From the NCBI GenBank assembly GCA_963718895.1, contig CAVRAG010000008.1, positions 928,001 through 992,000 on the forward strand: DNA of 64,000 bases, read 5' to 3'. Position numbers and translations under genes: made by a program. Every line of letters starts with the position of its first letter. Position 1 is the first letter of the stretch. The notes beneath the pieces are model-generated. The model was not told where the DNA came from. It searched no databases and saw only the letters and a program-made list of their open reading frames with translations. The stretch comes from an uncultured Nitrososphaerota archaeon (GTDB lineage: Archaea > Thermoproteota > Nitrososphaeria > Nitrososphaerales > Gagatemarchaeaceae). Shown piece after piece: positions 1,245-47,746 of the stretch.

Positions 1245-1868
1245 CTAGGCGGGGACGTAGTACGCGCCGCGGGCACACGGGCCGCAGAGAGGCATGCCGT
1301 TCACGACGATCTCCTTCCCGTCCATTATCTCGTCACCGCACTCGGCGCAGGGTACGTTCGGCACCTTCATGCGGGAGAGGAAGGGAGCGGCGCCCACCAT
1401 CGTGACCCTCTCGACGTCGAAGAGCTCCTCGGGCTTCATCTTCATGAACGCATTCTTGGATACCTTCCTGTCCAGGTGCGATCTCGGCTCCACCTCCTCG
1501 CCCTCCTTGAGCAGCCCGTCCCTGACCGCCAGGTCCCTGGCGCGCCTTGGGAGGTCCCTCTTCGTCGCCACCCTGAACCCCATCCCTGTTGTACCGTCTA
1601 AGAAGACTGCCGCCGATTTCCCGTAATCGAGGACCCTCAGCCTTCTGCTCCCGGCGCTGCAGCCGGTCGCCACCTGGATCCCGTCGACGGGACACTTGTT
1701 GTTCTCGACTATGACCATGAGGTTGGCCCTCTCTTCCGGCGCCTCCATCTTCAGGAGCCGGAGACCCTCCAAGCCCATCTTGACGCCCAGCGGGAGACCG
1801 ACGCAGAGATGTCCCCTGAGCTTCGCTGCCTCGCCGACAAGGGCGTCGAAACCATCCGATTCGATCAT
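1245..1868 (-). CDS. fmdE: FmdE-family protein (formylmethanofuran dehydrogenase subunit E-like) with C-terminal zinc finger
   Basis: RGHLCVGLPLG, ENNKCPVDGIQVATGCSAG, DYGK and C-terminal CAEC...CGPC. Confidence 0.85.
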   Translation of the reverse strand: MIESDGFDALVGEAAKLRGHLCVGLPLGVKMGLEGLRLLKMEAPEERANLMVIVENNKCPVDGIQVATGCSAGSRRLRVLDYGKSAAVFLDGTTGMGFRVATKRDLPRRARDLAVRDGLLKEGEEVEPRSHLDRKVSKNAFMKMKPEELFDVERVTMVGAAPFLSRMKVPNVPCAECGDEIMDGKEIVVNGMPLCGPCARGAYYVPA

Positions 1869-2047
1869 ATCCACCGGACCTCGCGAAGGAAGGGGGTTAA
1901 CTACCCTTGGGAAGAACGATGGGTCGCTCGTGGATTGAAGAGCCCCGCCTCGAAGGCATAGGCCCACGGCGGCATGCAGAGATGCAAACAATAGAATAGG
2001 ATACTCGTAAATAGAGATATGGGCTGCTTCGCCGCGTCCGGATAGCA

Positions 2048-2917
2048 TTGAAACAAGCGGATTTCGTCGAGGTGATGAACGGACTCCTCGCCAGGGGCGA
2101 GCCTTTCGCGGTCGCCACCGTCGTCAGAATCGAAGGCTCGACACTCGGCAAGCTGGGGTTCAAGACGATCATCTCGAAGGAGGGAGAGGTGCTCTGCGGG
2201 TCGCTGGGAGGCCCCTGCCCGGAGTCAGCGATAGCTGAGAAGGCCAAGGAGACGCTCAGTTCGGGAACCCCGAGGACCGTCGAGGTCTTCCTGGAGAACG
2301 TCGAGGACGCCGTCGGACGGATGGTGACGGTCCAGGACAAGGACGAGGTCCACCTCGAGACCAACTGCGGCGGGAAGATGGAGGTCTTCATCGAGCCCTA
2401 CGTCCCGCAGCAGAGGATCCTACTGGTCGGCCAGGGCGGGAGGAGCGACGTCGAGGACTCCCTTGTCAGGTTTGGGAAGATCCTCGACTTCGAAGTCATT
2501 GTCGTGGATCACAGTCCCGTCTTGACAGAGGAGCCGGACCAGCTCATCGATGATCTGGACTTTGACATCGCCGGCTTCAAGTTCTTCGAGTCCGATTCGG
2601 TGGTGGTGCTTACCCACAGCGAGAGGGACGTCGACGTCCTGCGAGCGCTCTCAGGCTTCAAGCTGAGATACGTGGGCCTCCTCGGAAGCCGGCAGAGGGT
2701 CAAGGAGAACCTGGACGCCCTGCGCTCCAGGGGAGCGGAGGAGAAGTTCGTCTCCTCAATCAGGGCCCCAGTCGGCGCTGACATCGGCGCGAGGACGCCC
2801 TCGGAGATCGCGCTCAGCATCATGGCCGAGGTCGTCGCGACGAAGTACGGGAGGAAGCTTCTCCGGAAGGACGCTGCGACGGCGGAAGGACTGGTACCCA
2901 CCAGCGGCGCAGGGTAG
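2048..2917 (+). CDS. xdhC: XdhC/CoxI-family Mo-cofactor chaperone
   Basis: AVATVVRIEGS, GSLGGPCPE, NCGGKMEVFIEP, YVGLLGSR, APVGADIGARTPSEIALSIMAE. Confidence 0.9.
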   Translation: MKQADFVEVMNGLLARGEPFAVATVVRIEGSTLGKLGFKTIISKEGEVLCGSLGGPCPESAIAEKAKETLSSGTPRTVEVFLENVEDAVGRMVTVQDKDEVHLETNCGGKMEVFIEPYVPQQRILLVGQGGRSDVEDSLVRFGKILDFEVIVVDHSPVLTEEPDQLIDDLDFDIAGFKFFESDSVVVLTHSERDVDVLRALSGFKLRYVGLLGSRQRVKENLDALRSRGAEEKFVSSIRAPVGADIGARTPSEIALSIMAEVVATKYGRKLLRKDAATAEGLVPTSGAG

Positions 2918-2985
2918 GACCTGGCCTCACCCGGGCCATGCCGAAGAAGGTTTAACCGAACGAAGGCGCGCCCGCAGGCAGAATC

Positions 2986-3807
2986 ATGCCCAGCACACTC
3001 GTGAAAGACGCCCTTGAAGAGGTCCTCCTGAGGATTGGGAAGAAGAGGGACGAGATCAAGGTCAAGGAGCTGGTCGTTAGCGTCCTCTACACGGCTGTCA
3101 GGCTCTCCTCCGACGACATCGGCTTTGCCTCCACGCCCCTCTCTGACCTTCCGGCCGAGAGCCGCGAGTTCTTCTCCAGGGCCGGGACCCTGACCGACCT
3201 TCCCGTGGGCGAGCTCGCGGAGTTGGCCCAGTCTTGGGATTTCAGCGAGCGCGTGATAGGAATAGCCGCGCTTAACGCGCTATCGCAGCTGGCGGTCAGG
3301 ACCAGAGGTGACGACATCGTCAGGAGCTACGGGGACGTCGTGGACATGGTGAAGGTGGGGATGGGGGACACGGTTGTCGTGGTTGGGAACATGCGCCACA
3401 GCGTGGAGAAGCTCAGAGCCCGTGCGAAGCAAGTCCTGGTTCTCGAGAGAAGCGTCGGTCTCAGGGACGAGGGCTCGTATCCCGACACTGCCGGAGAAGA
3501 GGTGATCCCCAAGGGCGACCTGGTCTTCATCACCGGCGCGACCCTGTGCAACGGCACGATAGACCGCATCCTGGAGCTGAGCAGGAACGCGCGGGAAGTC
3601 GTGATGCTCGGGGCCACGGCCGGCATCTTTCCTCCGCCGGTGTTCGAGAAGGGCGGTACCGCCGTCGCCACGATGGAGATCCTTGACGCTGAGAAGGCGA
3701 TGAGAGCGATATCTCAGGGCGGCGGAAAGCCGGCGCTTATCAAGAACGCCCGTCTCGTGGTCTTCAGGCCCCGGAAGAGACTACCTCGAGCTGGCATCAG
3801 AAGCTGA
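2986..3807 (+). CDS. DUF364-family Rossmann-like protein
   Basis: IGIAALNALSQ, VVVVGN, DLVFITGATLCNGTIDRIL, MLGAT. Confidence 0.85.
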   Translation: MPSTLVKDALEEVLLRIGKKRDEIKVKELVVSVLYTAVRLSSDDIGFASTPLSDLPAESREFFSRAGTLTDLPVGELAELAQSWDFSERVIGIAALNALSQLAVRTRGDDIVRSYGDVVDMVKVGMGDTVVVVGNMRHSVEKLRARAKQVLVLERSVGLRDEGSYPDTAGEEVIPKGDLVFITGATLCNGTIDRILELSRNAREVVMLGATAGIFPPPVFEKGGTAVATMEILDAEKAMRAISQGGGKPALIKNARLVVFRPRKRLPRAGIRS

Positions 3808-4159
3808 AGACGGCGTCCGCCTGCAGCATTTTCTGCCTCAGCTCCTCCCGGGATGCAACCCCGAACCCCCCGTCGAGCTCCGACTCGGATATTCCTTCTT
3901 CCTCGAGTGACTCGCTTTCCACGTAGAAGAGGTGGCCCGCTGCGTCCTTCGGGAGCAGCTCAAAGAAGTCCTGGGCGTAGGACCTGTCGACTCCCTTGAG
4001 CGCGCACATGACGCCCTTCCCGAGGTGGGCTATGGTGATGTCGTGCTCGTCGGTCCCCCCGAGGATCCCGAGCGCCATCCTGAGGCCCTCGACGTAGTAG
4101 GACGTGCCGACCGGGGGCCTGAGTATCGAGATGAAGACCTTCTTGCGCAACCATGACAC
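3797..4159 (-). CDS. dsrF: DsrF/TusC-like sulfur-relay subunit
   Basis: LRPPVGTSYYVEGLRMAL, YVESESLEEEG; third gene of a DsrE-family triplet. Confidence 0.7.
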   Translation of the reverse strand: MSWLRKKVFISILRPPVGTSYYVEGLRMALGILGGTDEHDITIAHLGKGVMCALKGVDRSYAQDFFELLPKDAAGHLFYVESESLEEEGISESELDGGFGVASREELRQKMLQADAVFSF

Positions 4160-4420
4160 CTAGAGGAAGTTTACGACCTTCTCTTCTTCCATCATCGCCA
4201 CGAGGTCCTCGTAGCCTATGATGCGGACAGAGGAGGGTATCCTCGACCCCAGGCCCCTTCGCATGACGTCTTCCTCCATGACGTACAGCTGGGCTGGCGT
4301 GCGGACACTCGTCGCTGAGTAGACGGCGTCCTGGAGGAGGACCAGTCGGGCGCCGGCGTCCCCGGCCGCGTAGGAGACCGCGACATCGACGAAGGGCTCA
4401 TCCACGAGATAGACCGTCAT
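4160..4420 (-). CDS. dsrH: DsrH/TusB-like sulfur-relay subunit
   Basis: LLQDAVY and EEDVMRRG motifs; IGYEDLV. Confidence 0.85.
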   Translation of the reverse strand: MTVYLVDEPFVDVAVSYAAGDAGARLVLLQDAVYSATSVRTPAQLYVMEEDVMRRGLGSRIPSSVRIIGYEDLVAMMEEEKVVNFL

Positions 4421-4433
4421 AGCTCGTCGGACC

Positions 4434-4787
4434 TCAAAGGTTTATGATCCTCTCGCACTTGCTGACCATCTCCCCCGCCTCGGTCGCGCCCGTCACCTGG
4501 ACCCGCTTCAGGTACCCCTTTCCGTCCTCGAGTCCCCGGTTGTCAGTGCAGGTCAGGCACGCAAAGACTTGGGCGCCTTTGTCGAGCAGGGAGTCGAAAT
4601 GGTCTTTTGGGAGCTTCTCCATCGCCGAGAAGTCCTCGGCCGAGAGCGCGTTGTACACCCCGTCCATGTAAAGGAAGACAGTGACCGTGTCCGACCTGCT
4701 CAGGGCTGCTTCGGCTATCTTGTATGCCGTCTCCCAGCGCTGGGTCTGATAGGGGCCGCGGCGGAGGACGATCCCGAAGTCGGTCAA
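4434..4787 (-). CDS. dsrE: DsrE/TusD-like sulfur-relay subunit
   Basis: RGPY, VFLYMDGVYNA, ACLTCTDNRG (persulfide Cys region). Confidence 0.85.
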   Translation of the reverse strand: MTDFGIVLRRGPYQTQRWETAYKIAEAALSRSDTVTVFLYMDGVYNALSAEDFSAMEKLPKDHFDSLLDKGAQVFACLTCTDNRGLEDGKGYLKRVQVTGATEAGEMVSKCERIINL

Positions 4788-4910
4788 ATCGACTCGAAGG
4801 GTTGAAATCCTTCGGATAAGCGTTTCCCGGAGTTGCCCGAACAGGCTGATCCCGCGCCGGGTACGGAAGAGCTGAAGAACTTCCGAATCCGGTCGAGGAC
4901 TTGATTCACG

Positions 4911-5450
4911 TTGACCAGCGAAGACGATTCAGCCGTCGAGGGCGAGCATTCTGTCTTCCTCTTCGAGCACTTCCGGGACGGGATGAGGGCCGAGGACGCG
5001 CTCATCAGCGCGGGATTCCACACCCATTCAGGCGCCCCGCCACCGGACGTGAGGACCGGCTGCGACCTTTCCGTCTCGGTGCCGACCAGCGAGACGGCAG
5101 CGGCGGAGAAGAAGCTGCTGGAGAAGGGGATCAAGGTCTGGGACGTGATCTTCAAGTTCAGCGGATCCCTGCCAGAGCTGCAAATCAGCAAGCTCGTGAA
5201 GAGGGTGGACTACGGCGACTACGTCATGATAAGGGTCGGGAACATGAAGCTCACCTATCAGAAGAAGACGGGAGTGATAGTCAACATCTCGGGCGGAGGC
5301 TGTCCGGACATCCCCCTCCTTGCAGTGAAGATGATCGGGAGGAGCCTGCAGGACGTCACGCCCCCCGCCCAGACCGGCTTCACGCTCTGCGCCTACACCC
5401 TCCAGAAAGCATACGAGGTGGCGCTCAGGCAATGGAGAGAAGGCGCCTAG
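4911..5450 (+). CDS. DUF3343-domain Cys-rich protein
   Basis: MRAEDAL...APPPDVRTGCDL, NMKLT, NISGGGCPDIP, GFTLCAY. Confidence 0.7.
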   Translation: MTSEDDSAVEGEHSVFLFEHFRDGMRAEDALISAGFHTHSGAPPPDVRTGCDLSVSVPTSETAAAEKKLLEKGIKVWDVIFKFSGSLPELQISKLVKRVDYGDYVMIRVGNMKLTYQKKTGVIVNISGGGCPDIPLLAVKMIGRSLQDVTPPAQTGFTLCAYTLQKAYEVALRQWREGA

Positions 5451-6326
5451 ATGCTCCTACTCTCCGGGACGCTGCCTTCGGCTGACGTATCCATCACAGT
5501 CGGGCGGGTGAAGCTGGAGGGAAGGCGGATGAGCATCGGCGACACGGAGGTACCGCCGGAAATGCTCTCGATCGGCGCGACCGCGATGATGGCCGCCGCG
5601 CTGAAGACGACCGAGGCTCTCGGGGTCGAGCCTCCGATGAGTGTGGTAGCCGGGGACCTTGGCGACGGCGCCGGGTCGAAGCTGGTCTACAAGTTCCTTA
5701 CCGAGGAGGCGGGCGGTCTCGGTCCGTCGATAGTCACCCTCCACTACATACTGCCGCTCAGGAACGAGTTCCTCGGCTTCGTTGAGATGGCCGACTACTG
5801 GGCGAAGAGGCCGTTTCTGGTCGCAGACGCCGGGGCGCTTCTCATCGCCAAGGCGACGAAGGTCTGCGACAAGTTCGACCTGTTCACACCGGATGCCGGA
5901 GAGATATCCTTCCTTGCCGATCCAGATGCGGGTCACCCAGCGTACGTGAAGGCCGCACTCTTCGAGGTCGATACGACAGACGTCCCAAGGTTGATCGCGG
6001 CGGCCTACGCCGCAAAGAACACCCCGCGGTACCTTCTGGTGAAGGGGCCCACCGACTACATTGTTGAGGACGGGAAGATCCTGTTCACGGTATCGGAACC
6101 GAGCATACCGGCCCTGGAGCCAATAGGAGGGACCGGAGACACGCTGACCGGGATAGTCTCGGCACTGATATCGGGAGGGATCGACCCCATCAAGGCAGGC
6201 TTAATCGCGTCCAAGGCCAACAGGCTAGCCGGCGCGCTCTGCAATCCGACTCCCGCGACGAGGGTCTTCGAGGTCGTCGACCAAATTGAGGAAGCGGTCC
6301 GCAAAACGGTGGATGAACAGCGGTAG
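5451..6326 (+). CDS. YjeF-C/ribokinase-fold carbohydrate kinase (NAD(P)H-hydrate dehydratase-like)
   Basis: GDLGDGAGS, VADAG, FTPDAGE, LLVKG, IGGTGDTLTG anion-hole motif; directly follows DUF3343. Confidence 0.8.
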   Translation: MLLLSGTLPSADVSITVGRVKLEGRRMSIGDTEVPPEMLSIGATAMMAAALKTTEALGVEPPMSVVAGDLGDGAGSKLVYKFLTEEAGGLGPSIVTLHYILPLRNEFLGFVEMADYWAKRPFLVADAGALLIAKATKVCDKFDLFTPDAGEISFLADPDAGHPAYVKAALFEVDTTDVPRLIAAAYAAKNTPRYLLVKGPTDYIVEDGKILFTVSEPSIPALEPIGGTGDTLTGIVSALISGGIDPIKAGLIASKANRLAGALCNPTPATRVFEVVDQIEEAVRKTVDEQR

Positions 6327-6380
6327 CCCTGATTCACAGACAGGTCCAGGCCATAGATCTACCTCAGAACGGAAACTCCC

Positions 6381-6591
6381 CTAGGCGTTAGTCTTGCGGG
6401 CCCTGTGAGAGAAGGACAGCCAACCAATGATGACCATGCCGGCCACCAGCACGACCGATGTCGTCAGAGCTACTTCGAAGACGCCCGGGTCGAACCCCAC
6501 CACCGCGAATGCGTAGAGGAAGACGGCCCAGGTAAGAACCCAGGACAACCGCTGTCGTGACCAAGAGAACTACAAAGCGCCGGTCTACCAA
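6381..6591 (-). CDS. Small two-TM membrane protein (one apparent frameshift near 6528)
   Basis: LVDRRFVVLLVTTAVVLGSYL continues after removing one G as AVFLYAFAVVGFDPGVFEVALTTSVVLVAGMVIIGWLSFSHRARKTNA*. Confidence 0.55.
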
Positions 6592-6777
6592 CGAACTCGC
6601 AGGACGCTCCGGTCTGCTATAAGAGTTAACGTAGCATCGAAGGATGATCAGTGATTGGCTCGACATACCCATATTGCTGACCCCAACCAAGGCGCGAAAA
6701 CGCCGATTAGGGGGGTAACGTTTTTACCTTGACGAAACCGGCTCCCATATATATCAGACAATCGCTCTCCTCCATCC

Positions 6778-7137
6778 ATGGAGAAAACAGTCGCGGTAGA
6801 CGCTGAGCGAGCTGCAGCGTCGATTCCCAGCGAGAGCGGCGACTTTCAAGGGCATGCGAATCACACCGTCGACTGCAGGGATCAGCTCTGCCCGAAGCCC
6901 ATCCTGATGGTCAAGAGGTCGCTCTCAGAAGCGCTCCTCGGTGAGGTCCTCGAGGTGATAGTCAACGAGCACGTGTCCAAAGAGAACGTCCTCAAGTACT
7001 GCTGGAACCACGGTCAGGAGGTATTCAAGTCATACGAGAGCGGCCCTGACTTCCACATCTTCGTGAAGAAGTCTCCCGAGGTCAGGGTCGAGAAACCGAT
7101 GCCCGTAATAGGCCCGTGCGGCGCACGGTGGGATTGA
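6778..7137 (+). CDS. tusA: TusA/SirA-family sulfur carrier
   Basis: VDCRDQLCPKP (CPxP motif), GEVLEVIVN; extra C-terminal GPCGARWD. Confidence 0.85.
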   Translation: MEKTVAVDAERAAASIPSESGDFQGHANHTVDCRDQLCPKPILMVKRSLSEALLGEVLEVIVNEHVSKENVLKYCWNHGQEVFKSYESGPDFHIFVKKSPEVRVEKPMPVIGPCGARWD

Positions 7138-7170
7138 ACACATCCGAGCGTCTCTGGAAGTGCGATAACA

Positions 7171-8055
7171 ATGGAAGAGTTTTACAGTTTCGTCGGAAAG
7201 AGGCTCGCCGAAGGGAAGCGAGTCGTAGTAGCCACCGTCATCGAGGCGGAGGGGTCGGCCCCGCAGGGCGGCGGAGCAGCGATGGCGATTACCGAGGATG
7301 GCCCGATTGCTGGGACCGTGGGTGGGGGTTGCGTTGAAAGGTACATCGTCAAGTCCTCAAGAAAGGTCTTCGCAGACGGCAAGACAAGGATCGAGGAGTT
7401 CAACCTCGGGGACGACAGCTGGTCCGGGATCGGGATGTCCTGCGGCGGAAAGGTGAAGATGCTGATGCAACTAGTAGAACCGGTTGAGAGGCTCATTGTC
7501 TTCGGCTCCGGAGGAGTGGCGAGGAGCTGCTGCCAGATCGCGAAGATGATGGGCTACGACGTCATAGTGCTCGATCCCTTCGCAGACAAGGAGTTGTTCC
7601 CGGGCTGTGAGATCTACACACAGGGGATACTCCACAAGATCGAGGAGATACCGATAACACCGTTCGACAGTATACTCATGCTGACGGACCACCGCTACGA
7701 CTTCGAGGCACTCCAGAAGGTTCTGGGCTCCAAGGCGAGGTTCATCGGCATGATCGGCAGCAAGAACAGGGTCAACCAGACCTTCAAGCAACTCCTGGAG
7801 ACTGGGGTGCCTCTCGAGAAGCTCCTCACGGTTAACGCCCCCGTTGGGCTGGACATTGGAGCGGTCTCGCCTGCGGAGATTGCCGTCAGCATAATGGCGG
7901 AGGTGATACAGGCCCGGAAGGGCGGCTCCCTGAAGCATCTTCGCCTCACGGGGATTCTAGAAAAGCCTGAGAAGCTGCACGCCTCGAATGAACCTGCGAA
8001 GGAAGAGACGGAGGCCGCCATGGAAGTACCTCCGGCGGCGTCGAAGCCCGAGTAG
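7171..8055 (+). CDS. xdhC: Second XdhC/CoxI-family protein
   Basis: GSAPQ, GTVGGGCVE, GMSCGG, FIGMIGSK, APVGLDIGAVSPAEIAVSIMAE. Confidence 0.9.
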   Translation: MEEFYSFVGKRLAEGKRVVVATVIEAEGSAPQGGGAAMAITEDGPIAGTVGGGCVERYIVKSSRKVFADGKTRIEEFNLGDDSWSGIGMSCGGKVKMLMQLVEPVERLIVFGSGGVARSCCQIAKMMGYDVIVLDPFADKELFPGCEIYTQGILHKIEEIPITPFDSILMLTDHRYDFEALQKVLGSKARFIGMIGSKNRVNQTFKQLLETGVPLEKLLTVNAPVGLDIGAVSPAEIAVSIMAEVIQARKGGSLKHLRLTGILEKPEKLHASNEPAKEETEAAMEVPPAASKPE

Positions 8056-8088
8056 ACGGTCCTTCGGCGGGTCTGAAGCCGAAGCTGG

Positions 8089-9270
8089 TCAATTCTCAAC
8101 CAGATGGGGCCCTGCCGCTCGCTCTCGCCTTCTCCGGTCCCGTCTCCTAACGAAAAAGAGGGCCAGCAGGAGCGAGACACCGATGATGATGAGAGCCACC
8201 AGGTAGGCGAGGGGCGCGTCCAAGCTCGGTGAAGAGGATGTCGATGCTGCGGGGGCGCTGAGTACGATCAAGCTGGTGACGTCATCCTCGGTGATGTAGA
8301 GGCTTCCCGTGACCGGGCTGAAGGCCATGGAGGTTATGCCCGCGAACGAGATTCCTTCCGGCTGGTCCCCCGTCGAGTTCAGGATAACCTCACCGCTCGC
8401 TCCGTCGACCTCGTAGAGACTGTTCACACCGGGGTCGCTGACGTAGACATCGGGCGAGGAGCCGGCCGCCAAGAGCTGCGGGGCGTCTCCCAGATGGAGC
8501 TCGCGGACAATCTGGAACGTCCTGTCGTCTATGACGACGAAGTTGGGTGACGAGGAGTTCGACCCCGGCCCGGTCACGAAGAGGAGGTGCGTGCTAGGGT
8601 CGACCGCGAAGCTCATCGGCGCGACGGGTATCGGGATCGATCGGATCGCCGTCAGGCTGTCGCTGCTCACGACCGTGACGGACCCGCTGTGGTAGTCAGA
8701 GGAGACGTTCCCGATGAAGGCCTCGTGGGCGCCGGGGTCGAAAGCTAGCGCCGACGTATCACCCATCGAGACGCGCGACTCAACCGTGCCTGCCGAGGCG
8801 TTGATGACCCAGAGAGAGTTGCTGGCCGTATCCGCCGCGAAGAGGAGGTTCTGGGACTCGTCGACCACCATTGCGTAGGGCGTCCCTGCCCCGTCGATCG
8901 TCGAGAGAACCGTGTTGCCGGAGCTGTCGATGACCGAGACGGAGGCGCGCTCGCCCTGCGACACGTAGACTAGACCTGTGACCGAGTCGACCGCGACGGC
9001 GTAGGGGGAGGGCGTCGCGACCCTCCCGAAGACGGTGAAGGTGAGCGGCGAGAGGGTCACGGTGGTCCCGTTCAGGAAGAGCACCGTGTAGATCACTCCC
9101 GAGTTGGAGTTCACCGCGACGCCCCGCGGGACAGTGCCTAGGCCGACCGAGGAGAGCGTCGCTGTCGCGTTGCCCGACACCTCGCCCTCGGCGGAGAGCA
9201 GCGCGACGGAGGCCACCAGCAGAAACAGGGCCATCGCAATGACCATCGGCGGTGCGTGGGGGCGTGGCAT
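8089..9270 (-). CDS. Membrane-anchored YncE/YVTN beta-propeller surface protein
   Basis: Signal peptide, repeated P-x-x-VAVD...YV...SVSVID units, C-terminal TM plus poly-Arg. Confidence 0.8.
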   Translation of the reverse strand: MPRPHAPPMVIAMALFLLVASVALLSAEGEVSGNATATLSSVGLGTVPRGVAVNSNSGVIYTVLFLNGTTVTLSPLTFTVFGRVATPSPYAVAVDSVTGLVYVSQGERASVSVIDSSGNTVLSTIDGAGTPYAMVVDESQNLLFAADTASNSLWVINASAGTVESRVSMGDTSALAFDPGAHEAFIGNVSSDYHSGSVTVVSSDSLTAIRSIPIPVAPMSFAVDPSTHLLFVTGPGSNSSSPNFVVIDDRTFQIVRELHLGDAPQLLAAGSSPDVYVSDPGVNSLYEVDGASGEVILNSTGDQPEGISFAGITSMAFSPVTGSLYITEDDVTSLIVLSAPAASTSSSPSLDAPLAYLVALIIIGVSLLLALFFVRRRDRRRRERAAGPHLVEN

Positions 9271-9549
9271 GATTTCACATCAGGGATGAACGCCGGCGCT
9301 ACCTCGGTCTGAAAGCCGTCGGGAGAATCCGACCTTCGACGCTCGAGCGTGGACCACACTTGCGGGACAAACTCGGCGAACGATTTGGCGGGGTGGGACA
9401 CGCGCCCGAAGGCCGATACGTCATTCCTTCCGGACTCAGCCGGGTCGGAAATATAAAGGGAAGGGATGAATGCTCCGCTTTTGTCCGGAAGAGCGACCCC
9501 CGACCCTGGAGTCATCCATCTCGATTATATTCTGCGGATGAGCATGAGG

Positions 9550-9870
9550 ATGGCGGGAAGACAATTGGACCTTCTCAAGAAATGCCCGAATTGCGGCAAG
9601 CACTTCTCGGTCGAGAAGAAGGGGAAGGAGCTCGTTGAGACCGAGCACCACATGGAACACATAGACCTCGACCTCGCGACCCGTACGTCGGGCTTGATGC
9701 ACGACAACAGCATCCAGCACCCTCCGCCCAACCCGATCTCCGAGGAGATACCGATCGAGACGGAGACTTTCGAGACCAGTTACGAGTGCTCGCACTGCCA
9801 CTACAGGTGGACCGAGAAGTCGGTCGACGTGGTCGAAGGGACGGCCGACACCAAGGGCTTCCGCGCCTAG
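9550..9870 (+). CDS. Zinc-ribbon hypothetical protein
   Basis: CPNC ... YECSHCHYRWTE. Confidence 0.65.
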   Translation: MAGRQLDLLKKCPNCGKHFSVEKKGKELVETEHHMEHIDLDLATRTSGLMHDNSIQHPPPNPISEEIPIETETFETSYECSHCHYRWTEKSVDVVEGTADTKGFRA

Positions 9871-10050
9871 GGAAGAACTCCGCCCGACGGCGACTCACTC
9901 CGCGCTCGAACTCTCTTTCTCGAACACCAGTCCGAACCCATTCGGGACTCGGCCCCGCAGGATGGAACACGTTTGAGGGATGACGTCCCCCAACCTATTC
10001 GGGACACCCCGTAAATATCTCAGGTATTGCTGGGGGGTAAGCGAATTAGC

Positions 10051-11337
10051 TTGACAAACCAGCAATATGCGGAGATGTGGAAGGACCTCGGGCTGAATCT
10101 CGAGAAGCACGATGTGCTCCTCAGCGCCCTCGCCAAGGGGTACGGAGACCTCTTCATGACGCAGAAGAACCGGCCGGCCGGGATGGGCTACTTTGACTTC
10201 GTCATCTCGGAGGTGCACGGGCTCAGGATCAAGGAGTTGGTCGACCGCAAGAAGGCTGGTAAGAAGATTATCGGAGCGTTCTGCCTCTACGTCCCCGAGG
10301 AACTCGTCTACGCCGCTGACGCCACCATGGTGGGCCTCTGCGGAGGCGCCGACTTCTCGATACCCGACGCCGAGACTGTGCTGCCCAGGAACATCTGCCC
10401 GCTGGTCAAGTCCTTCTTCGGGTTCAAGGTCGGAGCGACCTGTCCCTACTTCAATTCATGCGACATGGTTGTCGGCGAAACGACCTGCGATGCGAAGAAG
10501 AAGGTCTACGAGGTCCTCGCAGACTACGCCCCCACCTACGTGATGGAAATCCCACACAAGGTGGACACGGAGCAGTCCAAGGCCCTCTGGCTTGCTGAGA
10601 TCAAGCTGTTCAAGCAGCAGATGGAGACGCTGACGGGCAACGTCATAGAGAAGGACTCCCTGAAGGAAGCCATCCGCCTGATCAACGAGAAAAAGAAGGC
10701 GATGAAGAGGGTGAGCGAGGCCCGCAAGGCCTCACCGACCCCGATCAGCGGTCTGGACGCCCTGCTGGTCAACCAGGTGAGCTTCTACGACGACGTCAAC
10801 AGGTTCACCCTGAAGACCAACGAGCTCGCAGACGAGCTGGAGGAACGGAACAGGAAGGGAGTGGGCGTCGGCGACCCGACCAAGCCGAGGCTGATGTTCT
10901 CTGGATGCCCCATGGCCATCCCGAACTGGAAGCTGCACTCGATCGTAGAGTCGACGGGATCGCCCGTAGTGGCCGAGGAGAGCTGCATCGGCTCACGGTA
11001 CTTCACCGACCCCGTCGTCCCCAAGGGTGACTCCATGGAGTCCCTCCTCGAGGCACTCTGGGAGAGATACCACAACATCTCCTGCGCGTGCTTCACGCCC
11101 AACAACGACAGGGTAGACAAAGTGGTCGAGATGGCCAAGGAGTTCAACGCCAGCGGGGTCGTCTACAACGTGCTCCAGTACTGCCACACCTACAACATAG
11201 AGGCCATCAAGGTCGACAAGGCCCTGAAGAAGGCGGGAGTGCCAATGCTGAAGGTCGAGACGGACTACGGGTCGGAGGACGTCGAGCAGATCAGGACGAG
11301 GGTCGAGGCCTTCACTGAGATGCTCAGCTCTGCGTAA
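10051..11337 (+). CDS. Double-cubane-cluster protein (DCCP)-type anaerobic reductase, 2-hydroxyacyl-CoA dehydratase superfamily
   Basis: N-terminus YAEMWKDLGLNLEKHD...RPAGMGYFDFVISEVHGLRIKEL characteristic of DCCP; six candidate cluster Cys in GAFCLYVPEE, RNICPL, ETTCDAK, EESCIGSRY, ISCACF, LQYCHTY; GGGGGT RBS before TTG 10051. Confidence 0.8.
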   Translation: MTNQQYAEMWKDLGLNLEKHDVLLSALAKGYGDLFMTQKNRPAGMGYFDFVISEVHGLRIKELVDRKKAGKKIIGAFCLYVPEELVYAADATMVGLCGGADFSIPDAETVLPRNICPLVKSFFGFKVGATCPYFNSCDMVVGETTCDAKKKVYEVLADYAPTYVMEIPHKVDTEQSKALWLAEIKLFKQQMETLTGNVIEKDSLKEAIRLINEKKKAMKRVSEARKASPTPISGLDALLVNQVSFYDDVNRFTLKTNELADELEERNRKGVGVGDPTKPRLMFSGCPMAIPNWKLHSIVESTGSPVVAEESCIGSRYFTDPVVPKGDSMESLLEALWERYHNISCACFTPNNDRVDKVVEMAKEFNASGVVYNVLQYCHTYNIEAIKVDKALKKAGVPMLKVETDYGSEDVEQIRTRVEAFTEMLSSA

Positions 11338-11355
11338 GCACAGGGGTGAGCCCGA

Positions 11356-12288
11356 TTGGCCGTCGCGGGAGTGGACATAGGCGCGGTGGCGACGAAGGTC
11401 GCCGTTCTCGCCGACGGGAAGGTGCTGGCCTTCCAGATACTCCCGTCCGGCTATGACGGAAACGGGGCCGCACGACGGGCCCTTAGGCTGGCGCTCGAAG
11501 GGGCCCGTCTGGCCCGAGGGGACATCGACTTCATCGTCTCCACCGGGTACGGGAGAAAGGTCTTCAGCGAGGCCAACAAGAGCGTCACAGAGATAACCGC
11601 CCACGCCGAAGGGGCGAAGGCAGTCTGCCTCTCTGCCAGGACCATCCTGGACATAGGCGGGCAGGATAGCAAGGCGATCAGCCTGACCGACGACGGTCAG
11701 GTGGCGAACTTCGTCATGAACGACAGGTGCGCGGCCGGCACGGGCAGGTTCATCGAGGTCATGGCTAGGGTCCTGCACGTCAGGGTCGCCAAGATGGGGG
11801 AGCTTGCGCTCAAGAGCTCCAACCCGGCGAGGATAAACAGCATGTGCACCGTGTTCTCGGAGTCTGAGGTGATATCTCTCCTCACGAACGGAAGGAGCAG
11901 GGAGGACGTTGCCGCGGGACTGTGTGAGTCCATTGCGAGAAGGGTCTGCACGATGGTGAGGTACGTCGGCGTCAAGGAGGGGGTCGTGTTCAGCGGCGGA
12001 GTGGCGAAGAACGTCGGTATGGTCGCCGCCCTCGAGAAGGAACTCAAGACCAAGCTGCTGATCCCACCCGAGCCGCAGTTGATCGGAGCCTTGGGCGCCG
12101 CGTCGATCGCCCGGAAGTCCCTGGACAAAGAGGCGAATGCTGCCGTGCCGCTTCAGGTCGAAGAGGGTGGCGCCTGCGCCTTGACGGCCGGGGTTGCCGA
12201 TCCCATGTCCCAAGGCATCATTGCGCCCGGCATCGCCGCCGTAACTCATCGTCTCGGCGAATCATCTGGCCGAGAGATTCCAATCTAG
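11356..12288 (+). CDS. ATP-dependent [4Fe-4S] activator/reductase (ASKHA ATPase, DCCP-R/HgdC-like)
   Basis: GVDIGAVATK, STGYGR, TEITAH, DIGGQDSK, MNDRCAAGTGRF, SMCTVF, SGGVAKN, GALGAA; GGGGTGA RBS. Confidence 0.9.
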   Translation: MAVAGVDIGAVATKVAVLADGKVLAFQILPSGYDGNGAARRALRLALEGARLARGDIDFIVSTGYGRKVFSEANKSVTEITAHAEGAKAVCLSARTILDIGGQDSKAISLTDDGQVANFVMNDRCAAGTGRFIEVMARVLHVRVAKMGELALKSSNPARINSMCTVFSESEVISLLTNGRSREDVAAGLCESIARRVCTMVRYVGVKEGVVFSGGVAKNVGMVAALEKELKTKLLIPPEPQLIGALGAASIARKSLDKEANAAVPLQVEEGGACALTAGVADPMSQGIIAPGIAAVTHRLGESSGREIPI

Positions 12289-24836: not shown

Positions 24837-26789
24837 CTAACCTGGCCTCAGATTCTTCGCCAGGCCCGTCCTCTCCAGCATCGAGAGATAGCGGGGGTCT
24901 GACCTCACGCCGTCCAGCTCGGATTCCACCGCCATCGCGTAGATCCTGCGGTCCAAGGATGTGAAGGCCCTCTCCAGCCACTCGAAGCCTGCGTCGTTGT
25001 CCTTCAGGATGAAATAGAGCGATGCGATCAAGAACGGACTCGCGGTCTTCACATCGGGCGAGCGTTCCACCTCGGAGAGCAGTCTGCGGCTCTCCTCAGC
25101 CCTCCCCATGGCCGCGTAGATCCAGGCATATACGAGCTTCGCGTCGGTCGGGTCGGTGAGCCTGCTGTAGATGTCGGCCATCGCCAGCGCCTCGCCGAAC
25201 ATCGACTTCGCAAGGTACGTCTGGATGAGGCTCGGGTAGACGCTGGAGAACCCGGGATCCATCTCGATGACCTTCTTCCCCTGTGCGATGGACTTGTCGA
25301 GCTCCCCGTTGTAGTAAAGGCCATCCATCAGGTTGGTGTTTATGATGAGCGACAGCGGGCTCAGCTCGACGGCCTTCCTTATCTCTGCCAGCGCCTCGGT
25401 ACGCCTCAGCTCGAACGCGAGCAGGTGGGAGTACCACTGGTGCGCGGTGGCATAGCTCGGATTGAGTTCGATGGCCTTCCGGAATGCTGCTTCGCTCCTC
25501 GCCGGGTCCCGCTCGTAGGTCAAGGATGCGGCCGCGATGACCGTGTGAGCCTCAGCCAGGCCGTCGTCCAGCGAGAGCGCATTCCGGGCGTTCTCGATAG
25601 CCCTGGGATAGTAGACCGACGGTTCATCGTAGTAATTGGCCGCCATGACCTGATAGCACTGGGCCATCCCCGCATAGCCTAGGGCGAAGGCAGGGTCGAG
25701 GTCGACGGCCATGGTGAAGAGCTCGGCAGCCTTCCTGAGCGCCTCCGGGGTCCTCCTGTTCCACTGAAACATCCCTTTCAGGTAGAGCGTGTGCGCCTCC
25801 GGGTTCCTGGTGGCGCCCTTCTCGATTCTCTTGAGCCCCTCATCGCTCAACCTGACCTTCAGGGCCTCCGCCACCTTCTGCGCGACCTCGCTCTGGATGG
25901 CGAAGACGTCGTCGAGCTGCTTGTCGTAGTTCTGGGCCCACAGGTGCCCCTCGTTGCGGGCGTCGATGAGCTGGACGGTTATCCTGACCTTGTTCCCGGC
26001 CTTCCTCACGCTCCCCTCTATCAGGGTCCCGGTGCTCAGTTCCCTGCCGATCTCGCCTATCCTCTTCGTGGAGTTCTTGTACTGCATGGTCGAGGTCCTT
26101 GCGATGACCGTGAGGTCGGTGACGGTGGCTAGCGATGTTATCAGCTCCTCGGTCATGCCCTCGGCGAAGTACTCGTCGTTCGGGTCTGGGCTCATGTTCT
26201 TCAGAGGAAGGACCGCGACCCTCCGCACATCCAGCTCCCCAACCTCCGGCGTGCTCTCCATCTCCCAGGGCATGACTATCCTGTAGACTTCGATGGGGAT
26301 GCTGACGTTCTTTAGAGTCTTGCCCTCCAGCTTCTCCAAGGGCAGGCCTATCTTGTTCCTGACCTGGTCATAGACCTGTGCCGAGATACAGACGCCTCCC
26401 GGCGCCGCGAGCGGCTCGATGCGGGAGGAGACGTTGACGGCATCGCCGAGGATGTCTCCCTGGGAGTGGACCACGTCGCCCACGTGGACGCCGACCCGGA
26501 TCTGGATGCGCCTCTCGGGCGGCAGAACCGCGTTCCTTTCGTGCATCGCCTGCTGGATCTCGGCGGAGCATGCGACCGCCTCCAGCGCGCTCGGGAACTC
26601 GACGAGGAAGGCGTCGCCGATCGTCTTCACCTCCTTCCCGTTGTGCCTGGGGAAGATCGTGCGGAGGAGTACCCGGTGCTCCTCAAGCACGAGGAGCGTT
26701 CGGGCCTCGTCAGCCTGGGAAAGGGCGGTGAAACCCACTATGTCGGTGAACATGATAGCGGCGAGCCTCCGCTCGGATTTGACTGCCAT
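24837..26789 (-). CDS. Class III adenylate cyclase with TolB-like and TPR domains
   Basis: RRLAAIMFTDIVGFT, VKTIGDAFL, RVGVHVGDV, GDAVNVSSRIE; VAVLPLKNMS...EYFAEG; TPR repeats. Confidence 0.9.
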   Translation of the reverse strand: MAVKSERRLAAIMFTDIVGFTALSQADEARTLLVLEEHRVLLRTIFPRHNGKEVKTIGDAFLVEFPSALEAVACSAEIQQAMHERNAVLPPERRIQIRVGVHVGDVVHSQGDILGDAVNVSSRIEPLAAPGGVCISAQVYDQVRNKIGLPLEKLEGKTLKNVSIPIEVYRIVMPWEMESTPEVGELDVRRVAVLPLKNMSPDPNDEYFAEGMTEELITSLATVTDLTVIARTSTMQYKNSTKRIGEIGRELSTGTLIEGSVRKAGNKVRITVQLIDARNEGHLWAQNYDKQLDDVFAIQSEVAQKVAEALKVRLSDEGLKRIEKGATRNPEAHTLYLKGMFQWNRRTPEALRKAAELFTMAVDLDPAFALGYAGMAQCYQVMAANYYDEPSVYYPRAIENARNALSLDDGLAEAHTVIAAASLTYERDPARSEAAFRKAIELNPSYATAHQWYSHLLAFELRRTEALAEIRKAVELSPLSLIINTNLMDGLYYNGELDKSIAQGKKVIEMDPGFSSVYPSLIQTYLAKSMFGEALAMADIYSRLTDPTDAKLVYAWIYAAMGRAEESRRLLSEVERSPDVKTASPFLIASLYFILKDNDAGFEWLERAFTSLDRRIYAMAVESELDGVRSDPRYLSMLERTGLAKNLRPG

Positions 26790-27084
26790 CGGGCTGTGTG
26801 TTTGTACCAGCCCTCGAGTTAAAACTATTTGCTGGTCCAGCGCCCGACGCTTATCGGTCAAGCCTGCCCGGTATGATGGAGGCTACGTTCTCGACATGAA
26901 CATGGCGACCTTGTTCACCTTGAAAAGCCGGTCGTCTGCTGCCGAAACAGCAAGCGTCCTCCTTGCCTGCCTATCCGGACACCCTAGCTGCGGAGGGCCT
27001 CTGCCATCCTCACGACCCTGCAGGTCGAACCCGCCGCGCCAGGACGCTATGATCGTCTGGTGAATACTATAAATCAACCCACCC

Positions 27085-27960
27085 GTGCGCGCCACCGTGC
27101 AAAAGGACCTCCTAGACGGCGTCTCGGCGAGGATCAAGGAGCTCGGCAAGGGAGGCTACTCGAGGGTCTACAGGTCCAGCGGCCGCGAGTACCCTGATGC
27201 TCTGCACGTCCTTGTGAGCAGAATCCTGGACGCGGCGGGCGTCGAGTACCGGACCGGCGAGCCAATCTTCCCCGGCTCTCCCAGGCTGGCCGACTTTGCC
27301 GTCGGGGACAGGCTGATCATCCTCGGCGGAGACCTCAGCGCTGACGAGAGGAAGAGGGCCGCCCGCGCCGGGAAGAAGTGCGTCGTGATCGCAAAGAGCG
27401 AGATGCGCAGCGACGTCTTCGACACCGGGACGAGGGTCCTCCGTTCGGGCGACCGCTCGAAGGAGAGGCTTCAGACGATCTTCCTCGACGACCCGTCGTT
27501 CAACTTCGACTATGCACACATCCTCCCCAAGACCGAGAAGTGCTCCGTGATGCACGGGCACACGTCCTCGGTTCTCGTCGAGCTCGTGGGCTCGCCGAGG
27601 GACGGAATGGTCGTCGACTTCAACGACGCCAAGCCGATAATCAGGGAGGCGGTGCGAGGACTCGACCACAAGCTCTTCATCAGCAACAGGTACGTCACGG
27701 GGAGGGAAGGGAGGAGCGTGCTCATAGGGTTCGACACGGTCCACGGGAGGTTCGAGATGAGGGTCCCCGCCAAGACCACCGTCCTCCTCGAGGAGGAGGC
27801 GACCGTCGAGAACCTGGCGCAGGAGCTGGTCCGTAGGATAGCCCCAGGGATGCCCGAGAACGTGGAGGCCGTAGGAGTCTACGTCTACGAGGGCCTCAAC
27901 AAGGGCACCCACCTCCTTGCGCTCATCCATTCGAGAGAGGCCGAGCGGCGACGGAAGTAA
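27085..27960 (+). CDS. queD: 6-carboxytetrahydropterin synthase QueD with ~125-aa N-terminal extra domain
   Basis: FDYAH, CSVMHGH, GMVVDF, LDHK, TVENLA. Confidence 0.85.
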   Translation: MRATVQKDLLDGVSARIKELGKGGYSRVYRSSGREYPDALHVLVSRILDAAGVEYRTGEPIFPGSPRLADFAVGDRLIILGGDLSADERKRAARAGKKCVVIAKSEMRSDVFDTGTRVLRSGDRSKERLQTIFLDDPSFNFDYAHILPKTEKCSVMHGHTSSVLVELVGSPRDGMVVDFNDAKPIIREAVRGLDHKLFISNRYVTGREGRSVLIGFDTVHGRFEMRVPAKTTVLLEEEATVENLAQELVRRIAPGMPENVEAVGVYVYEGLNKGTHLLALIHSREAERRRK

Positions 27961-28623
27961 TAGTCCTCCTCTCGGGGGGCATCGACTCGGCCACGTGCCT
28001 CTACCTCTCAAAGAAGAAGGGGTACCTGAACAGGGCCCTCACGATGCGGTTCCACGGGATGGCCGCCGGAGAGGAGCGGGCCGCAACCCGCCTGGGTGTC
28101 GCTGCGGGGGTCGAGGAGCACAGGTTCTTCTCGATGCCGGAGCTGAGGGAGCTCGGCGACATCGGCCCGCTCGAACGGCTCGCTGGCCTTCCTTCCGCCT
28201 ACATCCCCATGAAGAACTCGATCTACTACAACGTGGCCGCCGCCTTCGCCGAGGAGGTCGGGGCGGGACGGGTCGTCGGGGGCCACAACGGCGACGACAG
28301 GGCGGTCTACGAGGACACGAGCGACGCGTTCTTCAGGAACCTGCAGCGGACGCTCAGGTCGGGCTCGGCCAGGCTCAGGCAGCAGGACTTCAGGATCTGG
28401 AGGCCGCTCCAGCGCGATGAGCAAGGCGGAGGTGGTGGCGCTGGCGTCGACCCTGGGCGTACCCTTCGAGATGACCTGGAGCTGCCACAGGGAGGGCAGC
28501 AAGCACTGCTGGGAGTGCGAAGGATGCCTAGGGAGGGTCCTTGCGTTCCGTCAGGCGGGGGTCCTGGACCCGTTGAGTGCAGCCAAATACCGAAAGGGTA
28601 TAAAACGGGCTCTTCCCGGCTAG
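27957..28623 (+). CDS. queC: 7-cyano-7-deazaguanine synthase QueC (frameshift ~28415; start unclear)
   Basis: VIVLLSGGIDS PP-loop in the frame upstream of ORF 28044, YIPMKN, TWSC...HCWECEGC. Confidence 0.85.
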
Positions 28624-28627
28624 ATTC

Positions 28628-45573: not shown

Positions 45574-45665
45574 GATCGCTCACCAGCCTCGCTGGCAGGA
45601 TGAGGAAGATCGACTGTGACGCGATGAGTACAGAGGGGCCAACGTATGCGGAGGGAACGCAGAAG

Positions 45666-46868: not shown

Positions 46869-47154
46869 GCCGAACTCCTCCCATATAGGACTTTTGCAAT
46901 TCCTACAACATAAGTTGTTGCTTCAGGAGAGTCTTATATCATCTGCCCGTCGAAACGATTGCAAATCAGGTTCTGCGAGTCGTTCTTGAAGCGCCGGGTC
47001 ACAGCCCCGCGAGACCGTCGCGCTTCTCCGGAAGATGAAATGGCCCATGCGTTCTCGGCATCTGCTTCAAGACCTATGAATTCTATGACATATGTTCTTT
47101 TTTAATGCAAAGTTTATAACGCAAAGCCAGTATCGGTTATCAGAGGGATTCGAA

Positions 47155-47361
47155 TTGGCCCAACAAACGACCACTGCGATAAAAGGGAATACGCATGCGA
47201 TGATCCTGGCTGTGTTAGGAGTGATTGCATTTATCGCCGGAGTCGCGGTATCGACCATCCACGGGACCGGTCTGCGTGGCTCGGGCTTGGGAACCCTTCT
47301 CATCGTGGCCGGCGTAGTGCTACTGATCATCTCCTACCTGCGTTTCTCTCGAAAGGTCTAG
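47155..47361 (+). CDS. Small two-TM protein
   Basis: Two hydrophobic helices; TTTATAA upstream. Confidence 0.55.
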   Translation: MAQQTTTAIKGNTHAMILAVLGVIAFIAGVAVSTIHGTGLRGSGLGTLLIVAGVVLLIISYLRFSRKV

Positions 47362-47662: not shown

Positions 47663-47746
47663 GGGCCGGAAGGGACCTACCCCTTGCAGGGGTGGACCCT
47701 GAGCCCAGAGCTACAAGGGTTCGAGCCGCGACTGGTTTCGAACCTT
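47663..47746 (-). repeat. Structured att-like repeat B
   Basis: GTGGGCCGGAAGGGA (47661-47675) identical to 59705-59719, followed by the same arm as repeat A. Confidence 0.88.

Follow-up and report, generated by a model that had tools for sequence, protein, structure and literature searches.

What does an oxygen-sensitive, ATP-driven reductase do beside sulfur carrier proteins in an archaeon that also possesses terminal oxidases? The question is raised by a stretch of 64,000 nucleotides (the window, G000:C8:928001-992000) of an uncultured Nitrososphaerota archaeon, the assembly of which comprises 3.13 Mb in 11 contigs and is 80.5% complete. The window encodes a double-cubane cluster protein (DCCP) and its reductase (DCCP-R). 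Comparative genomics supports a functional association of this pair with a module composed of TusA, a DsrE protein with a CxxC motif, a Se_S_carrier-DUF8182 protein and the YjeF_C-like partner of the latter. Within the module, DCCP counts among the accessory components and does not belong to the core. The reading favoured here, tentatively and with somewhat less than even confidence, makes DCCP an accessory low-potential reductase in a chalcogen-carrier pathway; in this organism the pathway would carry sulfur and feed the chaperone XdhC and its molybdenum cofactor (Moco). A first-pass annotation of the window had read the entire 11 kb around DCCP as one pathway; that interpretation is partly supported. 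It missed that the relay genes form, in other lineages, the selenium neighbourhood of SelD, YedE, YedF and LysR_Se.

Window genes were called from the listing of open reading frames (ORFs) and from Pfam and NCBIfam scans. The two genes in question are as follows.

10051-11337 (ORF from 10027), plus strand: class-I DCCP, HGD-D family (NF040772)
11356-12288, plus strand: DCCP reductase, archerase-type ASKHA ATPase (BcrAD_BadFG activase; TIGR00241)

Judged from its sequence, the region 10051-12288 encodes a genuine class-I DCCP together with an ATP-hydrolysing [4Fe-4S] reductase, as the first-pass annotation had held. The DCCP scores 483.9 bits on NF040772 ('double-cubane-cluster-containing anaerobic reductase'; cut-off 350), and 131 bits on the sister model HadC (2-hydroxyisocaproyl-CoA dehydratase; cut-off 700) and 105.9 bits on BzdN (benzoyl-CoA reductase; cut-off 453.8). 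By phmmer against the PDB it aligns over query residues 15-433 with the DCCP of Carboxydothermus (7yyl_C/6eno_A, E 1e-139); query residue 15 faces residue 5 of the 422-residue solved chain, the N-terminal extension being included. According to a review, this extension, which narrows the substrate channel, defines class I DCCP; in the alignment to the solved chain it is present in the window protein. Cysteines C86, C105, C124, C154, C320, C353 and C386 each face a cysteine of 7yyl_C. The six candidate cluster cysteines named at first thus do align with the solved protein, but the motif holds seven, namely six cluster ligands and one nearby cysteine. Two spacings (first gap x18, long gap x165) are one off the motif printed in the review; the solved chain also has x18. 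In the protein collection this DCCP is a 428-residue form. The reductase scores 281.5 bits on TIGR00241 (cut-off 125.4), aligns with the HadI activator (4eht_A) with both cluster cysteines kept, and also matches DCCP-R (7yyl_E).

The Pfam family of the protein is HGD-D, and many relatives are publicly annotated as 'BcrC/BadD/HgdB'; both would fit a common subunit of a 2-hydroxyacyl-CoA dehydratase or of a benzoyl-CoA reductase, encoded beside its activator. The scores on HadC, BzdN and the double_cubane model speak against such a subunit, as do the seven-cysteine motif, the class-I extension and the presence of one HGD-D gene only, with no alpha/beta catalytic pair at the locus. Because of the NF040772 score, the seven-cysteine alignment and the cluster cysteines of the reductase, this identity is rejected; its probability is close to nil.

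The pair resembles DCCP/DCCP-R of Carboxydothermus hydrogenoformans (CHY_0487/0488; 6ENO, 7YYL) in its end-to-end alignment, seven cysteines, class-I extension and adjacent archerase-type reductase. It differs in that the host is an archaeon with terminal oxidases, and in that the reductase is nearer to the HadI activator (230 bits) than to Carboxydothermus DCCP-R (170 bits) and has a C-terminal tail of ~55 residues, unlike the latter. YjiM/YjiL of E. coli belong to the same NCBIfam family, and E. coli exceeded the cut-off as a control. YjiM is without the N-terminal extension (class II, per the review), whereas the window DCCP has it.

The neighbours of DCCP were surveyed in the best 80 of 577 confirmed DCCP-relative stretches, that is, in the closest relatives only. 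ORFs of the loci were searched with the window proteins and then with seed sets for further families (phmmer, author-chosen thresholds); eight representative loci were also scanned with Pfam and NCBIfam. Twenty-four Bathyarchaeia-type loci were grouped by taxon label and tree, not by the features counted. Many of the 54 non-Bathyarchaeia contigs are short, so their neighbour counts are lower bounds. Within 10 kb of DCCP, the 80 loci contain TusA (31), DsrE (21), Se_S_carrier (7), the YjeF_C-like gene (7), XdhC (1) and FmdE (1); DUF364, DsrH and the DsrF-like gene are found in none. Co-occurrence of the window neighbours with DCCP, expected by the first-pass annotation, is therefore seen for TusA, DsrE, DUF3343 (Se_S_carrier) and the YjeF-like gene and fails for XdhC, FmdE and DUF364, and the same three counts lend no support to a single pathway spanning all 11 kb. 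FmdE, XdhC copy 1 and DUF364 are lineage-specific neighbours.

The Bathyarchaeia-type loci carry the main evidence. Within 5 kb of DCCP, SelD is present in 23 of the 24, TusA, DsrE and a selenium-type LysR in 21 each, and YedE halves, Se_S_carrier and the YjeF_C-like gene in 4 each. Gene order is LysR_Se | DsrE-TusA-DCCP-SelD, with TusA and DsrE immediately upstream of DCCP in 21/24; the genes from DsrE to SelD share one direction and are spaced 0-500 bp apart. Of the three loci lacking TusA and DsrE, two are cut at the upstream end. NCBIfam confirms SelD (NF010705, 310-336 bits; cut-off 291) and LysR_Sec_metab (254 bits; cut-off 250) among the neighbours. The 54 other loci contain the activase (46), YedF, a TusA-DsrE fusion (9), SelD (4) and YedE (4); YedF in bacterial loci scores 218-235 bits on TIGR03527 (cut-off 110). 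The activase (DCCP-R) is adjacent in 3 of the 24 Bathyarchaeia-type loci, and four Bathyarchaeia genomes without a DCCP-adjacent activase have two activase genes elsewhere in the genome. A small Rieske [2Fe-2S] protein is encoded within 5 kb of DCCP in 16/24; it may be an alternative electron donor of Bathyarchaeia DCCP.

The Bathyarchaeia operons (L012-L036, L041) hold the sister clade of the window DCCP and the same carrier families, with the CxxC of DsrE as in the window; some also hold the pair of Se_S_carrier-DUF8182 and YjeF_C-like genes. They differ in having SelD, LysR_Sec_metab, YedE halves and the Rieske gene, mostly without an adjacent reductase, whereas the window has XdhC instead, keeps the reductase adjacent and belongs to a genome in which no SelD is found. 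The tie between DCCP and SelD is already in print at genome level: the preprint of Haft and Gwadz (bioRxiv 10.1101/2022.07.06.499078) places 955 of 970 NF040772 proteins in SelD-containing assemblies, with nine methanogens among the 15 exceptions. No operon-level description of DsrE-TusA-DCCP-SelD was found in the literature searched (subscription journals outside the search). To a link known as a genome-level correlation, the Bathyarchaeia loci add an operon-level picture.

In the window, the carriers and the XdhC copy next to them are arranged as follows.

3797-4159, minus strand: DsrF/TusC-like subunit without CxxC (PF02635, 46 bits; TusC model TIGR03010, 25.7 bits, cut-off 94.15)
4160-4420, minus strand: DsrH/TusB-like subunit with zero cysteines (PF04077, 38.9 bits; TusB model TIGR03011, 41.8 bits, cut-off 49.2)
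4434-4787, minus strand: DsrE-like carrier with CxxC (ACLTC; PF02635, 73.3 bits)
4911-5450, plus strand: Se_S_carrier (DUF3343) domain fused to DUF8182 (PF11823, 40.9 bits)
5451-6326, plus strand: divergent YjeF_C/ribokinase-like (Carb_kinase) ATP-dependent enzyme (PF01256, 41.1 bits, cut-off 27)
6778-7137, plus strand: TusA-like carrier with CPxP (PF01206, 62 bits, cut-off 28.6)
7171-8055, plus strand: XdhC-family Moco chaperone, copy 2 (PF02625, PF13478; NF045664, 212 bits, cut-off 350)

The DsrE-H-F trio diverges from the Se_S_carrier gene. The stop codon of the latter abuts the start codon of the YjeF_C-like gene, and 33 bp separate TusA from XdhC copy 2. Every gene named in the first-pass annotation (FmdE, two XdhC, DUF364, DsrE/H/F, DUF3343, YjeF-like, TusA, DCCP, ATPase) was recovered at or near the place given there.

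The CxxC motif occurs as ACLTC in DsrE of the window, as CVVC in the DsrE encoded beside DCCP in Bathyarchaeia, and as CGTC in the DsrE part of YedF. It is missing from the DsrF-like protein, and the DsrH-like protein is free of cysteine. In Allochromatium DsrEFH, the E and H subunits have a conserved active-site cysteine. None of the TusBCD equivalogs is reached (TusD 42.3 bits, cut-off 89.25; TusC and TusB as listed), and the three proteins are placed at Pfam level only. In TusA, C38, P39 and P41 are invariant in the alignment, CPxP being kept; the protein scores 27.7 bits on the E. coli-type equivalog (cut-off 78) and 44.7 bits on YedF (TIGR03527, cut-off 110), the latter over the N-terminal domain only, DsrE being a separate gene. 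Both XdhC copies pass the Pfam cut-offs of XdhC_CoxI and XdhC_C and stay below the equivalogs TIGR02964 and NF045664.

Three cysteines are invariant in the Se_S_carrier protein: C51, C131 (in the SGGGCPD loop of the second domain) and C160. The second domain is DUF8182 (PF26554), as given by the precomputed Pfam of relatives. The AlphaFold2 (AF2) model of the protein has a pLDDT of 83.8; Foldseek against the PDB returned no match at E <= 1e-3 and generic ferredoxin-like/ACT rows only. In the YjeF_C-like protein, GGTGDTLTG aligns with GGSGDVLTG of TM0922 (GxGD nucleotide motif), and the score on the NAD(P)HX dehydratase equivalog TIGR00196 is 40.9 bits (cut-off 129.85). With a Carb_kinase domain and GxGD motif but a sub-equivalog score, it is therefore assigned to a superfamily, not to a function. 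The Se_S_carrier and YjeF_C-like genes are adjacent in all loci examined, and four fusion proteins of 530-546 residues are known, with relatives carrying PF11823, PF26554 and PF01256; because of this constant adjacency and the four fusions, the two are taken to act as one unit. A complex prediction of DCCP with TusA (residues 25-102) scored 0.03 against a mark of 0.32 and is not used as evidence either way.

Within Nitrososphaeria, DCCP is rare. It exceeds the cut-off in 4 of the 23 genomes of the genus (G000, G001, G010, G011), in 0 of 18 other genomes of the order (one sub-threshold paralogue), in 4 of 301 genomes of the class sample and in 8 of 401 of the phylum sample. The host genome contains two heme-copper oxidase (COX1) genes. 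The system was called unexpected for this lineage from the start, and rightly so. The thaumarchaeal label given at the same time also holds: TFIIB and TrmB genes lie within the window (Pfam scan). Close homologues of DCCP and of the YjeF_C-like protein carry the labels Nitrososphaerales, Nitrososphaerota or Thaumarchaeota. In a tree of 81 DCCPs, the five Nitrososphaerota rows form one clade (SH-aLRT 100), sister to 23 Bathyarchaeia-type rows (99); the joint clade has an SH-aLRT of 97. NF040772 also gives 324-362 bits, on either side of the cut-off, to a second DCCP-like subfamily (for example G201:C1:669954-671075, G363:C1:112437-113552). In the phylum sample this subfamily is frequent in families f28, f49 and f22, sometimes beside the high-scoring type in the same genome. 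A search of sequencing runs listed no RNA run and only soil and peat DNA contig runs, at <=0.30 of words; expression and habitat are not inferred from it.

The core island, in which DsrE-H-F diverges from Se_S_carrier, YjeF_C-like, TusA and XdhC genes, is present in G000, G001, G011, G007, G010 and G021. All four DCCP genomes of the genus are among the 6 of 23 with the carrier module. In the class sample, with the same draw of 301 genomes used for both searches, 10 genomes hold a YjeF_C-like ortholog and 4 hold DCCP, each of the 4 being one of the 10; DCCP is found in 0 of the 291 without the ortholog. The matches fall in two families (f1, f76). As the genomes are related and represent two lineages, this co-occurrence is suggestive, not statistical proof. 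In family f76 (genus g219) the Se_S_carrier, YjeF_C-like and YedE-half genes are followed, after ~2 kb, by TusA-XdhC, and DsrE-H-F lies ~5 kb off. The TusA-XdhC adjacency is conserved in genera g1 and g219, that is, in two Nitrososphaeria families. The FmdE gene of the island is conserved in G011 (L006) only. In G010 (C4:46000-65999) and G021 (C3:142000-161999) the Se_S_carrier, YjeF_C-like and XdhC genes appear as 2-3 overlapping ORF pieces, one with an internal TAG; these may be pseudogenes or assembly indel errors.

A considerable body of observations weighs against the favoured reading. In the window, an opposite-strand beta-propeller gene and a Zn-ribbon ORF intervene between the carrier genes and DCCP, and DCCP and carriers are therefore not one operon there. 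G007 (one contig, 95% complete) has the carrier/XdhC island with no DCCP anywhere; its island has the same flanks (SIMPL, Zn-ribbon ORF) and no propeller, DCCP/DCCP-R or gluconolactonase gene. The island without DCCP is also found in G021 (69% complete) and G036, and the carrier module without DCCP in f79 genomes and in G478 (95% complete). In G010 the DCCP/DCCP-R genes lie 66 kb from the island. In f76 they lie on other contigs than the island, and 3 of the 5 genomes examined have the pair. The DCCP-island adjacency in G000, G001 and G011 represents one evolutionary event (DCCPs 94-95% identical). At E 1e-20 the YjeF_C-like gene is missing from four Bathyarchaeia genomes in which DsrE-TusA-DCCP-SelD is present, and most bacterial relatives show only DCCP and its reductase (activase in 46 of the 54 loci). 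Genome-level co-occurrence in two related lineages could reflect a shared niche. The proposed link of DCCP to a chalcogen substrate is drawn from gene content, and it is not evident that reducing a persulfide calls for so low a potential.

Several of these observations would be expected if DCCP/DCCP-R were a mobile cassette of two genes, complete in itself, whose substrate is some unrelated small molecule (such as a metalloid, organometal or unsaturated compound) and which, in one sub-lineage of the genus, landed beside a sulfur-carrier/XdhC island devoted to Moco sulfuration alone. Three Nitrososphaeria contexts of the cassette point this way: the island in G000, G001 and G011; ACR3, ArsM-like and MoaD-like genes in G010; and an ABC transporter, a luciferase-like gene and a short-chain dehydrogenase/reductase (SDR) gene in L011. 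So do the intact island of G007, the opposite-strand gene between DCCP and the carriers, and the many non-Bathyarchaeia loci with DCCP and reductase only. Against chance vicinity stand the presence of the module in all 4 DCCP genomes of the class sample and all 4 of the genus, the position of TusA and DsrE immediately upstream of DCCP in 21/24 loci of the sister clade, and the improbability of a landing so near the module (within ~4 kb) when the genome spans 3.1 Mb (by the author's estimate well under 1% per placement). A chance neighbour is accordingly rated as the chief competitor and as rather unlikely. These data do not support the single pathway of the first-pass annotation, the carrier/XdhC island being without DCCP in G007 and DCCP/DCCP-R being found in two other contexts in related genomes.

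The neighbours of the G010 cassette (L010:3961-9230, upstream of DCCP) encode an arsenite efflux transporter of the ACR3 type (TIGR00832, above the cut-off with 375 bits), a methyltransferase resembling ArsM (221 bits, cut-off 263) and a small protein of the MoaD/SAMP1 kind. They may be a hint of metalloid chemistry. At 4 kb downstream of the cassette, an ORF (L010:15609-16319, minus strand) contains a tail-tube domain like that of T4 gp19 (70 bits) and may be a remnant of a contractile-injection system or prophage.

The chalcogen-carrier reading is favoured because a single 11-kb pathway is too wide, because the carriers found with DCCP elsewhere belong to the selenium neighbourhood, and because the clade keeps DCCP and carriers without SelD, with the carriers coupled to XdhC. 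Judged from the solved complex of Carboxydothermus, to which the pair is homologous, the reductase dimer would take an electron from a ferredoxin-type donor; ATP would drive it from the reductase onto the [8Fe-9S] cluster of DCCP, and DCCP would reduce a small substrate reached via a narrow channel. On comparative-genomic grounds the module is co-transcribed with DCCP, SelD, YedE/YedF and the selenium-type LysR in Bathyarchaeia and several bacteria; in Nitrososphaeria, where no SelD is found, it is joined to TusA-XdhC and DsrE-H-F. On this view the carriers would bind sulfur in the zero-valent state, either as a persulfide or as a trisulfide bridging the CxxC cysteines; in the relatives with SelD, the bound element would be selenium. 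DCCP would then supply the low-potential electrons by which the carried atom is released or inserted as sulfide (or selenide); we infer this chalcogen-release chemistry. The likely end use in the window organism would be the terminal sulfido ligand of XdhC-bound Moco, destined for enzymes of the xanthine-oxidase family, of which the host genome encodes five or six elsewhere (5-6 MoCoBD_1 genes). DCCP probably comes into play under anoxia; the organism has terminal oxidases as well. A tungsten aldehyde oxidoreductase (AOR) was considered as a client of XdhC and dropped, AFOR_C giving no match in the 80.5%-complete host genome.

Moco sulfuration mediated by XdhC is known from Rhodobacter capsulatus, in which XdhC acts with NifS4, and persulfide relays are known for TusA with DsrEFH or TusBCD. 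The island resembles these systems in having XdhC_CoxI and XdhC_C domains beside a CPxP TusA, and xanthine-oxidase-family clients in the genome. It differs in containing no cysteine desulfurase, in missing all equivalog cut-offs, in its cysteine-free DsrH-like protein, and in the extra Se_S_carrier/YjeF_C-like and DCCP components.

A dedicated role of the carriers in cluster assembly was also weighed. The carriers would deliver the bridging chalcogen of the double-cubane cluster, sulfide here and possibly selenide near SelD. The tight DsrE-TusA-DCCP-SelD adjacency in Bathyarchaeia agrees with such a role, and a selenium-bridged double-cubane cluster is listed as a 'formal possibility' by Haft and Gwadz (bioRxiv 10.1101/2022.07.06.499078). 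Against it, the module occurs in DCCP-less genomes (G007, G036, f79 genomes, G478), most DCCP loci are without carriers, and the SelD-less clade shows that selenium is not generally required. Carboxydothermus DCCP reportedly assembled its [8Fe-9S] cluster on heterologous expression, which is counted on the same side. Since the module is common without DCCP and DCCP common without the module, delivery of the bridging chalcogen is judged highly improbable. A relay dedicated to the bridging sulfide, one of the two roles suggested in the first-pass annotation, is thus unlikely, the island occurring without DCCP and the cassette in other contexts.

The SelD searches speak for sulfur over selenium as the carried atom here. 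No SelD exceeds the cut-off in the 41 genomes searched, which are the host and its relatives in the order and include the near-complete G001 (96%) and G007 (95%, one contig); the 5 genomes searched in the second family (g219) likewise give none. The best TIGR00476 match in the host genome reaches 48 bits (cut-off 125) and is HypE-like; the best matches to the SelD model are HypE-like proteins and ThiL. SelDs of Bathyarchaeia score 222-230 bits on the model used for the 41-genome search, and an archaeal SelD would therefore have been seen.

The carriers that accompany DCCP elsewhere belong to the neighbourhood for which Lin et al. 2015 (PMC5322559) proposed a role in selenium utilisation. There, STRING ties YedE, YedF and DUF3343 of Slackia to an HgdB-like gene and an activase. 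The neighbourhood described there (YedE/YedF/DUF3343/Sec-lyase/LysR_Se) is like the window in that TusA-like, DsrE-like and DUF3343 genes cluster with an HgdB-like gene and activase. The window departs from it in that TusA and DsrE are separate and not a YedF fusion, SelD, YedE and selenocysteine (Sec) lyase are not in the window, and SelD is not found in the genome. In the selenocysteine-assisted organometallic (SAO) system, as described by Haft and Gwadz, NF040772 proteins adjoin a DsrE-like CxxC protein (SaoD) and have a genome-level tie to SelD. No SAO genes or selenoproteins are seen here, and set against that source the window clade is a rare SelD-less exception.

A cryptic selenium pathway, independent of SelD or with SelD in the unassembled 20% of the genome, would account for the fact that every component but SelD and YedE has a counterpart in selenium neighbourhoods; the 80.5% completeness of the host genome and the sub-cut-off YedF model as best NCBIfam match of TusA are compatible with it. 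The absence of SelD from all 41 and 5 genomes searched, near-complete ones included, and the ready detection of Bathyarchaeia SelDs make it improbable.

A bolder extension of the chalcogen-carrier reading is that class-I DCCP is the missing chalcogenide-releasing reductase, which would act with ATP-energised electrons on zero-valent selenium or sulfur bound to TusA and CxxC-DsrE, giving selenide for SelD in Bathyarchaeia and Desulfobacterota and sulfide for XdhC-bound Moco in the SelD-less Nitrososphaeria. It is regarded as speculative and unlikely. If true, DCCP would gain a long-sought physiological substrate, its near-universal co-occurrence with SelD would be explained, and a selenium-to-sulfur pathway switch would have taken place in an aerobe-capable archaeon. 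Apart from this extension, the shared carriers beside DCCP and SelD in other microbes point to sulfur or selenium handling as the job of DCCP. Nitrososphaeria, with DCCP and carriers kept and no SelD found, constitute a natural control clade, which argues against selenium as an obligatory part of the cluster. Together with the operon picture, this clade turns a correlation into a testable hypothesis, with carrier-bound sulfur or selenium as the substrate. For Nitrososphaerota, DCCP represents a patchy, oxygen-sensitive accessory enzyme in oxidase-bearing soil lineages that are not ammonia-oxidiser-like.

The remaining genes around the island are as follows.

1245-2048, minus strand: FmdE-domain protein with a C-terminal DksA/TraR-type zinc finger (PF02663, 97 bits; PF01258, 25.7 bits)
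2048-2917, plus strand: XdhC-family Moco chaperone, copy 1 (PF02625, PF13478; NF045664, 111 bits, cut-off 350)
2986-3807, plus strand: DUF4213+DUF364 'putative heavy-metal chelation' protein (PF04016, 127.8 bits; PF13938, 61.5 bits)
8089-9270, minus strand: membrane-anchored YncE/NHL beta-propeller (NCBIfam repeat matches)
9466-9870, plus strand: Zn-ribbon ORF (weak Zn-ribbon matches only, Pfam and NCBIfam)
Downstream of the reductase, minus strand: gluconolactonase-like gene and SIMPL gene

The beta-propeller at 8089-9270 is an unrelated insert, absent from the island of G007. It is one of three NHL/YncE-type beta-propeller proteins in the window, counting those at 43714-46868. The Zn-ribbon ORF at 9466-9870 is conserved across the genus, with DCCP present or not; it was considered as a partner of DCCP and dropped, as G007 keeps the ORF without DCCP.

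Further along the window, positions 24837-26861 (minus strand) encode a 674-residue protein in which TPR repeats come after a catalytic domain of the adenylate/guanylate cyclase type. Genes for 6-pyruvoyl-tetrahydropterin synthase-like, QueC-like and FolE2 (GCHY-1) proteins lie at 27085-29383 and look like a 7-deazaguanine (archaeosine/queuosine precursor) pathway. Positions 46001-54000 have a G+C content of 0.49-0.52 (~0.61 elsewhere in the window) and contain an Acyl_transf_3 gene, an ABC-2 transporter pair and ORFs without a family match; this segment may be a foreign or surface-polysaccharide island.

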